NCBI RefSeq assembly: GCF_004010195.1
Contig: NC_057718.1
Span: 69,624,771-69,644,770 of the forward strand
DNA length: 20,000 nt
Reading direction: 5' to 3'
DNA from: Chiloscyllium plagiosum
Taxonomy: Eukaryota
Part shown: positions 1 to 13,887 of the stretch, piece by piece
Layout: every line of letters begins with the position of its first letter
Position numbering within the stretch: position 1 is the stretch's first letter
Notes under the pieces: model-generated
What the model saw: only the letters and a program-made list of their open reading frames with translations
The model's database searches: none
What the model was told of the DNA's origin: nothing
Position numbers and translations under genes: made by a program

Positions 1-1473
1 CATTAGGCAGCTCAGCATTCTTAGAGAGCAGAAGTCCGTGGATGAAAGGATGGTGGAAGGCTACAGACAGAAACTGCAATCATCATTCTTGAACAAAAGT
101 ATGGACCTGTGCAATTGTACATTGCTGATGAAAGTGGATTGTTTAGGTGTGCACTGCTGGACAAAACACTTGCAGCCACGGCAGAAAAGCAGGTGTTGGG
201 ACATAAAGTGCAGAAGAATTGCATCATGATTTTCACTTGTGTCAACGCCATTGGCACTCAATTTATCACTTGTCTGCATCGGCTGATATGCTAATCCATG
301 CTGCTTCAAGAACTGTGACAAAAACTCGTTTCCTGTGAAGTATAAAGCACAAAATAAGGCATGGATGTCATATCCACTTTTTTCATCCTAGTTCCATGAA
401 GATTTTGTACTTGCTATCAGATCACATTTGGCAAGCGCTGGACTCAAGCAATATTCCCTTCTGCTTGTTGACAATACAGGGGCACACACGGAAAAAGGTA
501 GCCAGTTAGAATCGGCAGACAGAGCTTTCAAGTGTTTATTTTTACCACCCACTTCAAGACTATAGCCGCTTGATCAGGGAATCATCGCAATTGTGAAAAA
601 ATATTATTGCCATTAACATGTTGCGTGCCATCCTGGGTGAAGGCAATACAGAGAAAAGAGTACGGGAAGTTATGAAGGCATTCACAGTCAAGGACACTTC
701 GTTCATGATTGCTGAATCTTGGGACTGCATCAAACCATCAACAATCGTGGAGTGTTGGCACAATGGCTTGTGTGTTGGTAACCATGCCAATGAAGAGGAC
801 ACCCGTCCAGTACAAAGGCAAACCACTGACATCATTGAAAACTGCAGACAGCTGGGATTAGGAGACTTTGTAGAGACTGAGATTGATGCTTAGGTGAACT
901 GTGACAACAACACTGGAACAGAGACAGAGACAGTCAGTGATGATCAGATAGTCAATGTAGTCACAGAAGAACAGTGGGAAAGTACAGACGCCATGGATGG
1001 TAAGGGAAATCTGATACTGACACCTCCTCCAGTCCCCGTTAACGAAGCTATTGAGAGTTTGCGACTTTTCATGGAGTGGTACAAGGCACAAGACAAAGTT
1101 GATGCCATTAAGTTGGTGAATCTTCACCAAATGTTATCATTCACGAAGAAAAGGAGGCAGCAGCACCTCAAACAACAGCAACTGGATATTTTCTTTGAAA
1201 ATAATAACCGACCTCCACCTCAATGAATTTGTGTACATGTACAGTAAATAAAAAAGTGATCTGATTTGTAAAATCTCATGAATTTTTAAGTGATGTCCAG
1301 TGTGTGTACAAATTTTAGCGATTGACTGAAATAAAAACTCTGTAAACATACTTTTTAATGCAATTATGTGCAGTATGGCTTCCTTGTTTAAGGTCAAATC
1401 AATTATCCAAATAATCAATTCTCTGAATGAAAAACTGCCTACCCATCTACTTCGGATAATTGAGGTTGCTCTG
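1..1473 (+). mobile_element. pogo/Tigger-type DNA transposon, 3' part (left end outside window)
   Basis: Decayed transposase, AATAAA at 1247-1252, and right TIR CGGATAATTGAGGTTGCTCTG (1453-1473; revcomp starts CAG) followed by TA at 1474-1475. Confidence 0.88.
109..1226 (+). pseudogene. Disrupted pogo/Tigger (CENP-B/jerky-like) DDD transposase
   Basis: Motifs YIADESGLF (D 127-129), GHKVQKN..FTCVNAIG, PVKYKAQNKAWM, LLLVDNTGAH (D 470-472), FLPPTSRL*PLDQGII (D 572-574) and C-terminal KQQQLDIFF. Stops at 563-565 and 891-893, plus frameshifts. Confidence 0.9.
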
Positions 1474-2429: not shown

Positions 2430-4988
2430 ACTGACTGGGACTTCGATGTTGTGGCCATTTCGGAGACATGGTTAGAGCAGGGACAGGAATGGTTGTTGCA
2501 GGTTCCAGGATTTACATGTTTCAATAAGAACAGAGAAGATGGTAAAAGAGGGGGAGGTATGGCATTGTTGGTCAAGGACAGTATTACAGTCGCAGAAGGG
2601 ATGTTTGGGGACTCGTCAAATGAGGTTGTATGGGCTGAAGTTAGAAACAGGAAAGGAGAGGTCAACCTGTTGGGAGTTTTCTATAGGCCTCCGAATAGTT
2701 CCAGAGATGTAGAGGAAAGGATAGCAAAGATGATTCTCGATAGGAGTGAGAGAGACAGGGTAGTTGTCATGGGGGACTTCAACTTTCCAAATATTGACTG
2801 GGAAAACTATAGTGTGAGTACTATAGATAGGTCAGTTTTTGTCCAGTGTGTGCAGGAGGGCTTCCTGACACAGTATGTAGACAGGCCAACAAGGGGAAAA
2901 GCCACATTAGATTTGGTACTGGGTAATGAGCCCGGCCAGGTATTAGACTTGGAAGTAGGGGAGCACTTTGGTGAAAGCGATCACAATTCTGTTATGTTTA
3001 CTTTAATGATAGAAAGGGATAGGTGTATACCACTGGGCAAGAGTTACAGCTGGGGGAAAGGCAATTACGATGNNNNNNNNNNNNNNNNNNNNNNNNNNNN
3101 NNNNNNNNNNNNNNNNNNNNNNNNNNNNNNNNNNNNNNNNNNNNNNNNNNNNNNNNNNNNNNNNNNNNNNNNNNNNNNNNNNNNNNNNNNNNNNNNNNNN
3201 NNNNNNNNNNNNNNNNNNNNNNNNNNNNNNNNNNNNNAAAAGAATGACAAGAGTAAGATTAGGGCCAATCAAGGATAGTAGTGGGAAGTTGTGTGTGGAG
3301 TCAGAGGAGATAGGGGAAGCACTAAATGAATATTTTTCGACAGTATTCACTCTAGAAAACGGCAATGTTGTCGAGGAGATTACAGAGATACAGGTTACTA
3401 GACTCGGTGTGATTGAGGTTCACAAGGAAGAGGCATTAGAAATCCTGCAGAGTGTGCAAATAGATAAGTCCCCTGGACCGGATGGGATTTATCCTAGGAT
3501 CCTCTGGGAAGCCAGGGAGGAGATTGCCGAACCTTTGGCATTGATCTTTAAATCATCATTGTCTACAGGAATAGTGCCAGAAGATTGCAGGATAGCAAAT
3601 ATGGTTTTTCCCTGTTCAAGAAGGGGAGTAGAGACAATCCTGGTAATTATAGACCAGTGAGCCTTACTTCAGTTGTTGGTAAAGTGTTGGAAAAGGTTAT
3701 AAGAGATAGGATTTATAATCATCTAGAAAATAATAATTTGATTAAGGATAGTCAGCACGGTTTTGAAAAGGGTAGGTCGTGCCTCACAAACCTTACTGAG
3801 TTCTTTGAGAAGGTGACCAAACAGGTAGATGAGAATAAACCAGTTGATGTGGTGTATATGGATTTCAGCAAGGCGTTCGATAAGGTTCCCCACAGTAGGC
3901 TATTGTACAAAATGCAGAGGAATTGGATTTTATATAGCAGTTTGGATTAGTAATTGGCTTGCTGAAAGAAGACAGAGGGTGGTGGTTGATGGGAAATGTT
4001 CCTCCTGGAGTCCAGTTAACAGGGGTGTACCGCAAGGGTCGTTGTTGGGTCCACTGCTGTTCGTCATTTTTATAAACGACCTGGATGAGGGCGTAGAAGG
4101 GTGGGTTAGTAAATTTGCAGACAATACTAAAGTCGGTGGAGTTGTGGATAGTGACGAAGATGTTGTAGGTTATAGAGAGATAAAGATAAGCTGCAGAGCT
4201 GGGCTTAGAGGTGGCAAATGGAGTTTAATGCGGACAAGCGTGAGGTGATTCACTTTGGTCGGAGTAACCGGAATGCAAAGTACTGGGCTAATGGCAAGAT
4301 TCTTGGTAGTGTAGATGAGCAGAGAGATCCAGGTACACAGATCCTTGAAAATTGCCACCCAGGTTGACAGGGTTGTTAAGAAGACATACAGTGTCTTAAT
4401 AGAGGAATCGAGTTCCAGAACCATGAGGTTATGCTACAGCTGTACAATACTCTGGTGCGGCCTCACTTGAGTATTGTGTACAGTTCTGGTCACCACATTA
4501 TAAGGAGGATGTGGTAGCTTTGGAAAGGGTACAGAGGAGATTTACTACGATGTTGCCTGGTATGGAGGGAAGGTCTTACAAGGAAAGGCTGAGGGACTTG
4601 AGGCTGTTTTCGTTAGAGAGAAGAAGGTTGAGAGGTGACTTAATGGAGACATATAAGATAATCAGAAGGTTATATAGGGTGGACAGGGAGAGCCTTTTTC
4701 CAAGTATGGTGATGGCGAGCACGAGGGGGCATACCTTTAAATTGAGGGTTGATAGATATAGGACAGATGTCAGAGGTAGTTTCTTTACTCAGAGAGTAGC
4801 AAGGGTATGGAATGCTTTGCCTGCAATGGGAGTAGATTCACCAACTTTAAGTACATTTAAGTCGTCATTGGAGAAGCATTTGGACATACATGGAATAGTG
4901 AAGGTTAGATGGGCTTCAGATTGGTATGACAGGTCAGCACAACATTGAGGGCTGAAGGGCCTGTTCTGCGCTGTAATGTTCTATGTTC
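2430..4988 (+). mobile_element. CR1/HER1-like LINE copy B, 5'-truncated, nested in copy A
   Basis: AISETWL, GGGMALLV, YRPPNS, MGDFNFP, SDHN (APE domain); [36 protein letters not shown] (RT domain). 3' tail GGGCTGAAGGGCCTGTT...TGTTCTATGTTC. Confidence 0.95.
3073..3237. other. Assembly gap, 165 N
   Basis: Run of N inside LINE copy B. Confidence 1.
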
Positions 4989-13275: not shown

Positions 13276-13425
13276 CTTATCGCCAATTAGTCATTTTGGA
13301 AAGCTTTAATAGGTGCTCTGAAAAATCAGTCTTAACCCTTGTCACAGCACCTACTGACAAACTATCAAATAATTCCTGTCTCTGTTGCCTGTAATATATC
13401 AATTGTTGATAATGAATTCTAAAAA

Positions 13426-13615
13426 TGATTTGGAGATGCCGGTGGTGGACTGGGGTGTACAAAGTTAAAAATCACACCATACCAGATTATAGTCCAACAG
13501 GTTTAATTGGAAACACTAGCTTTCGGAGCGCGACTCCTTCACCTGATGAAGGAGCGACACTCCGAAAGCTAGTGTGCTTCCAATTAAACCTGTTGGACTA
13601 TAACCTGGTGCTGTG
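13426..13615. mobile_element. Palindromic Penelope-like-element-derived insertion
   Basis: Imperfect ~77-bp inverted repeat (about 13465-13541 / 13547-13625). 13-bp flanking direct repeat TGAATTCTAAAAA (13413-13425, 13616-13628). Central hammerhead motif. Confidence 0.82.
13540..13574 (+). ncRNA. Minimal type I hammerhead ribozyme motif, complete core
   Basis: CAC-CUGAUGA-A-GGAG-CGACA-CUCC-GAAA-GCUA-GUG. Stem I CAC/GUG, stem II GGAG/CUCC, palindromic AGCU in place of stem III, CUA cleavage triplet. Confidence 0.78.
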
Positions 13616-13712
13616 TGAATTCTAAAAAGTTTTCTTTTACCCAAAGTTGAACTTCCAGATTTCCCATAGCTTAAAAGGGTCCTTTGGTCTTCTTGAGATA
13701 GCTGTGATGTTT

Positions 13713-13887
13713 TGACTCTTTTCAATTCGTTGGGCTGAATCTCACTTTTTTTCCCCTTTGTTTACAGACACCCTCCTTGGAAATTGATGCCATGTTCCTA
13801 ACCTCCCTACACTCCAGGTCCTGCACCCTGAAGCTACAATCTGACTCTTTTCAATTCGTTGGGCTGAATCTCACTTTTTTTCCCCTT
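13713..13887 (+). repeat. Perfect 46-bp direct repeat separated by 83 bp
   Basis: TGACTCTTTTCAATTCGTTGGGCTGAATCTCACTTTTTTTCCCCTT at 13713-13758 and 13842-13887. Confidence 0.97.

Follow-up and report, generated by a model that had tools for sequence, protein, structure and literature searches.

A hairpin with a minimal hammerhead motif in Chiloscyllium plagiosum: probably a head-to-head pair of truncated Penelope-like element copies

In LINE-1 twin priming, two priming events contribute to one insertion and leave its 5′ part inverted. Inverted arrangements are also known from Penelope-like elements (PLEs): the available parts of Craig et al. (2021; PMC8557442) and Arkhipova et al. (2013; PMC3846280) describe an adjacent, inverted, 5′-truncated copy, together with a tail confined to one end and palindromic sequence where the inverted copies meet. 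Frangieh et al. (2024; PMC11167929) found that PLE reverse transcription starts at two adjacent internal sites, the spacing of which equals an optional 30–40-bp tail, and that the PLE protein cuts and extends both DNA strands in vitro. In the same work, the hammerhead ribozyme needed the protein and was dispensable for insertion in vitro, and no RNA reads ended at the ribozyme cut site. The minimal hammerhead (min-HHR) of metazoan PLEs (Cervera & De la Pena 2014; PMC4209133) has no helix III hairpin, contains a nucleotide between A9 and 10.1 as well as a G10.1-C11.1 pair, and combines a long helix II with a short helix I (4–5 bp). It was proposed to act as a dimer through the palindromic positions 15.2/16.2; its activity in vitro is weak, with monomers reported inactive, and pairs of the motif occur on opposite strands, 100–700 bp apart. 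Finally, the animal non-LTR retrozymes, as described in the available parts of Cervera & de la Pena (2020) and Li et al. (2026), are short non-coding elements with type I hammerheads, related to PLE terminal repeats.

The window analyzed here is a stretch of 20,000 nucleotides from the C. plagiosum genome, in which a 190-bp non-coding insert occupies positions 13426–13615 between two 13-bp direct repeats (Table 1). Our reading, to which we assign a probability of about 0.7, is that the insert comprises two 5′-truncated copies of the last ~75–120 nt of a PLE, placed head to head by a single insertion within a 13-bp target duplication. Exact repeats of at least 8 nt flank 27 of 30 copies, compared with 69 of 870 mismatched control pairs, which shows that the 13-bp repeats are a genuine target-site duplication. 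Across copies, the flanking repeats range from 8 to 18 nt (median 12, maximum 18), and such variation in duplication length across copies points to retroposition; the flank of the insertion differs in every one of the 30 aligned copies. The TGA with which the right duplication begins also fits the element and so is microhomology at the junction between element and target. The insert is predicted to fold into a long hairpin, with arms at ~13465–13541 and ~13547–13625 that are 86–87% complementary. Its RNA fold, at −107.7 kcal/mol, was matched by none of 200 shuffles (−47.1 ± 3.7 kcal/mol; z = −16.3), and in the outermost ~10 bp of this predicted structure the pairing partner is the duplicated target and not element sequence. 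An earlier note on this DNA, made from the sequence alone, had described both the 13-bp repeats around a non-coding insert of this length and a hairpin of ~77 bp, and both descriptions hold, with the qualification that the outermost base pairs belong to the target. Shortly after the insert, an 83-bp segment is bounded by a perfect direct repeat of 46 bp (13713–13758 and 13842–13887), which may represent either part of a 129-bp tandem duplication or a target duplication of unusual length.

Table 1 Features of the insert (positions in the 20,000-nt window; L097 is a linear PLE copy elsewhere in the genome)
Feature	Position	Strand	Basis or remark
Left target-site duplication	13413..13425	.	TGAATTCTAAAAA; exact repeat of 13616–13628 by repeat comparison
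Long arm	13426..13541	−	Copies the terminal ~120 nt of the PLE in antisense; 90.6% identical to the 3′ end of L097
Complement of the optional ~35-nt PLE tail	13426..13462	−	Matches the terminal stretch of L097; outer end of the long arm, distal RT start site
Short arm	13540..13615	+	Sense copy of the PLE 3′ end, no tail; 93.1% identical to the 3′ end of L097
Minimal type I hammerhead (PLE min-HHR), complete	13540..13574	+	Sequence read; sole descriptor match in the window
AUUAAA polyadenylation signal	13583..13588	+	Poly(A) after 13600/13603; mirror copy on the minus strand at 13502–13507
Right target-site duplication	13616..13628	.	TGAATTCTAAAAA; copy alignment; first 3 nt (TGA) also fit the element

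A search of the insert's own genome (3.56 Gb in 101,977 contigs) returned 3164 first-look candidates, and all of the 40 scored matched over the full length, at 90–100% identity; one of the copies (L007) sits inside an older relative. Among 29 loci of this older family, 4 continue upstream of the hammerhead, 6 stop within ~10 nt of it, and 19 have an additional arm in inverted orientation, the length of which varies. Copies of the older family are 5′-truncated at variable points, from 0 to more than 460 nt upstream, and share a fixed 3′ end, which identifies the hammerhead strand as the sense strand. The longer copies contain degenerate ORF pieces upstream, and a protein search with one such piece yielded 23,369 first-look candidates. 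RT-type ORFs were present in the four loci examined (L095, L097, L099, and L104), including a 523-aa ORF in L099 that matches RVT_1 at E = 2e-7 and an open frame of 695 aa in L104. In these four loci, the hammerhead lies ~720–750 nt downstream of the ORF, after a 3′ UTR, and its motif is identical (L097, L099) or one base off (L095, L104) relative to the commonest motif of the 30 aligned hairpin copies. The ~135-nt end seen in the insert also follows RT-type ORFs elsewhere in the genome, and the window arm is 94–97% identical to the 3′ region of L099 and L104. The hammerhead came to the insert together with this 3′ end.

Among 8000 candidates, 1266 proteins are related to the L099 ORF at E ≤ 0.001, the best of them being shark proteins (up to 92% identity), followed by those of turtles and amphibians. 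The precomputed architecture of these relatives combines RVT_1 with PF28514 and PF26215, in some cases together with PF01541 (GIY-YIG), and the combination of RVT_1 and GIY-YIG was confirmed in a turtle relative (P0026). The C-terminal end of the L104 frame, read by eye, contains ...VVYLIRC...YIGET.... Pfam detected no GIY-YIG domain in the ORF pieces visible in the C. plagiosum genome, where the RT core of the longer copies is masked by N, and no family on the degenerate ORF pieces of L078, the N-masked L104 ORF, or the L104 C-terminus, in which one TGA was read as X. Runs of N occur at 3073–3237 of the window and in L016, L099, L104, and L105, the last an 8-kb locus that is mostly N; in L104 and L099, where the PLE copies are longer, they hide the RT core or the 3′ UTR and so restrict the assignment of domains. 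The parent is thus a predicted RT and GIY-YIG element, an architecture read from the relatives and from motifs recognized by eye, and would be a canonical endonuclease-type PLE. That the insert itself derives from a Penelope-like retrotransposon is, in our view, nearly certain. Of the two possibilities raised in the earlier note, the one upheld is therefore the first, in which a PLE insertion is truncated, includes a terminal copy in inverted orientation, and bears a minimal hammerhead of the PLE type; it is supported by arms 94–97% identical to the 3′ ends of RT-encoding elements, the min-HHR features, the one-sided tail, and the head-to-head arrangement. The link to an ORF combining RT and GIY-YIG, also anticipated there, stands in this genome for the RT; for GIY-YIG, it was confirmed in the relative P0026 and recognized only by eye in L104.

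The hammerhead starts at the hairpin apex on the plus strand and consists of CAC (13540-42), CUGAUGA (13543-49), an extra A (13550), GGAG (13551-54), the loop CGACA (13555-59), CUCC (13560-63), GAAA (13564-67), G-C (13568-69), U (13570), A (13571), and GUG (13572-74), with a predicted cut after 13571. Both conserved boxes, CUGANGA (13543-49) and GAAA (13564-67), are present, with U 13570 as U16.1 and A 13571 as H17. The features of the min-HHR described in PMC4209133 are also found: an unpaired nucleotide after A9 (A 13550), a G10.1-C11.1 pair (G 13551/C 13563), and a palindromic 15.2/16.2 step (G 13568-C 13569). Differences from that description are the helix I of 3 bp (CAC/GUG), as opposed to 4–5 bp, and the helix II, which in the window copy has 4 bp after a CpG-type change; cleavage is here predicted from the sequence. 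On the minus strand, the apex reads CAUCAGGUGA, and the antisense arm lacks a CUGANGA box. With both strands of the window scanned, a min-HHR descriptor gave a single match, at 13543; in 462,868 nt of fetched loci it gave 101 matches, compared with 1 in the reversed control. Helix II differs in sequence among three PLE lineages of this genome (GGAGC/GCUCC, GGGC/GCCC, and GGGUC/GACCU), being maintained across them by compensatory change.

Rfam returned no hammerhead match in the whole window at the gathering score, and no hammerhead family match in 13380–13660 at E ≤ 10; these models miss the motif because it has no helix III hairpin. The sub-threshold matches, among them SNORA23 (20.4 bits against a gathering score of 45; E = 0.035) and MIR8643 (13.3 against 135), were taken as chance hits to a hairpin. 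In the predicted RNA fold, the antisense arm pairs with the hammerhead except for CUGAU. The hammerhead in the window copy is probably an inert passenger, given that it occurs singly, that a min-HHR depends on a partner or on the PLE protein, and that it is paired with the antisense arm. Thus, the account of the ribozyme in the earlier note stands in its main points: a complete minimal motif starting at the loop (13540–13574, the one descriptor match in the window), an antisense arm that stops before the CUGA box, and sequestration of the ribozyme by this arm, with which the predicted folds agree. Its expectation of covariation in helix II is likewise borne out by the three lineages with three helix II sequences and by the descriptor counts, whereas recognition by Infernal with Rfam hammerhead models, which it had also suggested, yielded nothing. 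The two min-HHR lineages other than that of the window (loci L056, L063, L095, L101, L103, and L162) both have an extra A after CUGANGA; one combines helix II GGGC/GCCC with GAAA-CGUC, and the other GGGUC/GACCU with GAAA-C(G/A)UU.

Raw reads from one poly(A) single-cell run carrying the same species label were aligned to the window stretch, on which 1833 reads mapped at ≥90% identity, mostly from other copies; a second run (X22) yielded 0 reads. Depth on the sense strand reached ~1000 over 13540–13600. Non-templated A runs follow 13600/13603, 12–15 nt past AUUAAA, in 318 + 380 = 698 reads, and mirror T runs precede 13487 on the left arm in 145 reads; a head-to-head stub carries one used AUUAAA site per strand. 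The same poly(A) site is used in L097 (231–234 of that locus; 356 + 264 = 620 reads), where about one fifth to a quarter of the depth continues beyond it. Loose read ends upstream match the PLE 3′ UTR. The ribozyme strand is therefore transcribed and polyadenylated, at a site that follows the predicted ribozyme cut by ~30 nt and precedes both RT start sites. No pile-up of read ends was seen at the predicted cut in the window or in L097; a poly(A) library is blind to the cleaved 5′ product, and these data say only that uncut molecules are abundant.

The outer ends of the two arms correspond to alternative ends of linear copies. L097 ends at ...CAAATCATGAC, and the tail-less copies L095, L099, and L104 end ~35–40 nt earlier, near ...GATTTTTAAC. 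In the alignment of 30 hairpin copies, the left end is ...(GTCA)TGATTTGGAG... and the right end ...GATTTTTAAC(TTTGTAC). In the window copy, the left arm is tailed and the right arm tail-less. The long arm covers helix II, the GAAA box, the poly(A) signal, and the tail, and ends inside the catalytic box. The short arm begins 3 nt ahead of the hammerhead and does not quite reach the proximal RT start site, stopping ~10 nt before the usual proximal end (other copies go 8–15 nt further) with a 3-nt target overlap. The window copy is the outcome of one insertion event in which two copies face each other in antisense, with their outer ends at RT start sites and their inner ends joined at a self-complementary stretch.

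Head-to-head pairs of this kind are widespread in the genome. A 25-nt core of the tail has 43,142 exact occurrences, and the first 100 matches listed include 18 pairs in −/+ order within 1.3 kb and none in +/− order. Seventeen of these 18 sampled pairs (L163–L179) were read, leaving out one of 1,267 bp (L180). The outer ends are bimodal: all 17 combine an arm end at +120..128 from C3 with one at +82..92, and each of these randomly sampled pairs (contig C1) has exactly one tailed arm. Consistently, in a sample selected for the tail (21 hairpins among 29 loci), the partner arm is tail-less in 18 of the 19 resolvable hairpins. The junction falls within ~10 nt of the hammerhead in 10 of the 18 sampled pairs. 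Such mini-pairs are a major form in this genome. The rule of one tail per pair is stricter than an independent choice of start site would give, so that some coupling is needed.

Several known systems share parts of this organization. In LINE-1 twin priming, different parts of one RNA are copied and no hairpin results, whereas here both arms copy one and the same terminal stretch. The closest counterparts are insertions of endonuclease-bearing (EN+) PLEs, which, in the available parts of PMC8557442 and PMC3846280, likewise show head-to-head arms, a one-sided tail (as in all 17 pairs read here), extensive 5′ truncation, a target duplication of variable length, a palindrome or microhomology at the junction, and a hammerhead in the terminal repeat region. 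They differ from the pairs described here in that both of our arms measure 75–120 nt and the whole insertion is a 190-bp hairpin without an ORF. As in PAc, a Poseidon PLE of Anolis (PMC11167929), the hammerhead is located 60–100 nt upstream of two adjacent RT start sites, the tail corresponds to the spacing of these sites, and there are no RNA reads ending at the cut. For PAc, cutting and extension of both DNA strands were observed in vitro, whereas our products are known from genomic footprints alone; joined head-to-head products were not described there. The likeness to non-LTR retrozymes lies in the short non-coding sequence, the type I hammerhead, and the relation to PLE terminal repeats; the retrozymes, as far as the two sources are available, form head-to-tail tandem arrays that give circular RNAs, in contrast to the inverted arrangement found here. 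A retrozyme-like tandem array was accordingly dropped as a candidate, as a pattern search found only 4 head-to-tail junctions genome-wide and there is no tandem array at the window site.

The hairpin might alternatively be a discrete, non-autonomous mini-element, i.e., a master hairpin that is transcribed and retrotransposed as a unit by the PLE machinery, with the ribozyme processing its RNA. The 40 of 40 scored whole-insert matches that are full length would fit such a family, as would the window junction common to 25 of 30 aligned copies and the 121 exact copies of its 23-nt junction sequence (compared with 15,163 for the linear context). However, the samples with full-length matches and a shared junction were picked by likeness to the whole query. 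In 20 loci selected for the junction alone, the arm with the complete ribozyme is tail-less in 10, tailed in 8, and of other form in 2, and the members come from both young and old subfamilies. Occurrence in both orientations and in two subfamilies implies that the window junction arose many times. Junctions also vary in the sample selected by the distal 65 nt and in the random sample, and a second recurrent junction, at the centre of the helix II palindrome, was found in 30 places (e.g., L160–L162); the stubs centred on helix II keep no catalytic box on either strand. Moreover, both outer ends are RT start sites of the PLE, which a hairpin transcript would not reproduce at its 5′ end, and head-to-tail arrays are nearly absent (the 4 junctions mentioned above). 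A self-propagating hairpin family is thus largely refuted, and we consider it very improbable. With it falls the second possibility raised in the earlier note, a discrete ribozyme-bearing mini-element: inversion points differ among copies not picked by whole-insert likeness, and the exact junction recurs in two subfamilies and in both orientations. Identities outside PLEs fare still worse. A MITE-type DNA transposon, a tRNA-derived SINE, or a structured RNA gene (snoRNA or miRNA hairpin) would share the long hairpin and could draw on the weak sub-threshold matches to SNORA23 and MIR8643, and a GGTTATAGTCC-like box at the left end may loosely resemble a B box. Against a MITE stand the target duplications of ~8 to 18 bp, which have no fixed length, and the unequal arms. 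Against a SINE, ARAGORN finds no tRNA in the insert, and RNA polarity and poly(A) put the sense on the strand opposite the presumed SINE head. Against all of these, the arms are copies of the 3′ terminus of RT-encoding elements. The link to PLE ORFs and the variable duplications refute this group of readings, and the left arm as a tRNA-SINE head with an antisense ribozyme was dropped on the 5′-truncation pattern, the ORF link, and the RNA polarity.

A more serious competitor concerns the way in which the second arm is made. Self-priming would have the first cDNA turn back on itself at a palindrome and serve as its own template, with the element endonuclease stopping or cutting the copy at the tail boundary. 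Self-priming was proposed for PLE inverted repeats, and endonuclease-mediated resolution for the tail, in the available parts of PMC8557442 and PMC3846280; it would naturally yield one tail per pair, as observed in 17 of 17, and palindromes do lie at the junctions, in the 121 exact members of the window class and in the 30 places at the helix II palindrome centre. Yet in 4 of the 17 random pairs (L164, L173, L178, and L179) the longer, loop-continuous arm is tail-less and its partner tailed, and in three of them (L164, L178, and L179) the longer arm reaches ~8 nt upstream of the hammerhead. A simple fold-back cannot make such a pair, as it would have no template for the tail. In addition, second arms often lack the apex-proximal part and yet end at an RT start site, and the flanks are direct duplications and not inverted copies of the flank. 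We therefore regard self-priming as unlikely, if clearly less so than a mini-element.

Priming at both ends of the break seems the better account, and we lean toward it. Here, both 3′ ends of a staggered DNA break would prime cDNA synthesis, and each arm would be a short strong-stop cDNA extending from an internal RT start site toward the 5′ end of the RNA. The template RNA would begin at a TATA-driven promoter ~8 nt upstream of the hammerhead, and the two cDNA 3′ ends would then anneal and join through the quasi-palindromic CATCAGGTG/CA-TG microhomology. CATCAGGTG is self-complementary at 6 of 9 positions, with 2 G-T pairs, and a heteroduplex through it that resolves either way would account for the recurrence of the junction in both orientations. 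As to the RNA start, TATAAA begins 38 nt before C3, and an arm ends 7–9 nt before C3 in 7 of the 17 random pairs, as does the linear copy L130. Against this start, the majority of poly(A)+ reads continue beyond it in the upstream direction, with loose ends before 13539/13540, and no pile-up of read starts was reported near it among the poly(A) reads of the window stretch and L097. We rate a promoter with a start ~8 nt before the hammerhead, and hence arms that are strong-stop copies, at even odds. RNA ends defined by the ribozyme cut were rejected as the cause of the arm boundaries, as no boundary coincides with the cut site in either the tail-selected or the random sample.

If the two sites were primed independently, exactly one tail in every one of the 17 pairs would not be expected on that ground alone, and this counts against double-ended priming in its plainest form. 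Tentatively, the mini-hairpins could be footprints of a dimeric PLE particle in which both strands of the break are primed with one RT start site per strand, a condition that would give exactly one tail per pair. The templates would be strong-stop RNAs starting ~8 nt before the hammerhead, with the quasi-palindrome flanking CUGAUGA and helix II serving as cDNA joints. This more specific proposal is doubtful in its entirety, being less probable than double-ended priming as such.

For annotation, the consequence is that a ribozyme hairpin of this kind is an ordinary by-product of PLE insertion, which repeat maskers and ribozyme scans should class as a PLE stub; there are probably thousands of such stubs in the genome. 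Head-to-head PLE pairs and the min-HHR were already known, and the interest of the present data, modest as it is, lies mainly in what the census numbers say about PLE insertion. They supply footprints of insertion in vivo, consistent with the in vitro finding that a PLE uses two internal start sites and extends both DNA strands from them. The features relevant to mechanism are one tail per pair, two fixed outer ends, inner ends ~8 nt before the hammerhead, and junction orientations in a ratio of 10:8. A head-to-head stub might also act as a two-way transcript terminator and a source of dsRNA. The window contains a second head-to-head hairpin at 1852–1990, which belongs to a different PLE lineage; its arms (...GCTGAAAATGTGTTGCTGGAAAAGC...) lie on either side of a partial hammerhead, GGGCTTATGCCC-GAAA-CATCG, without a CUGANGA box.
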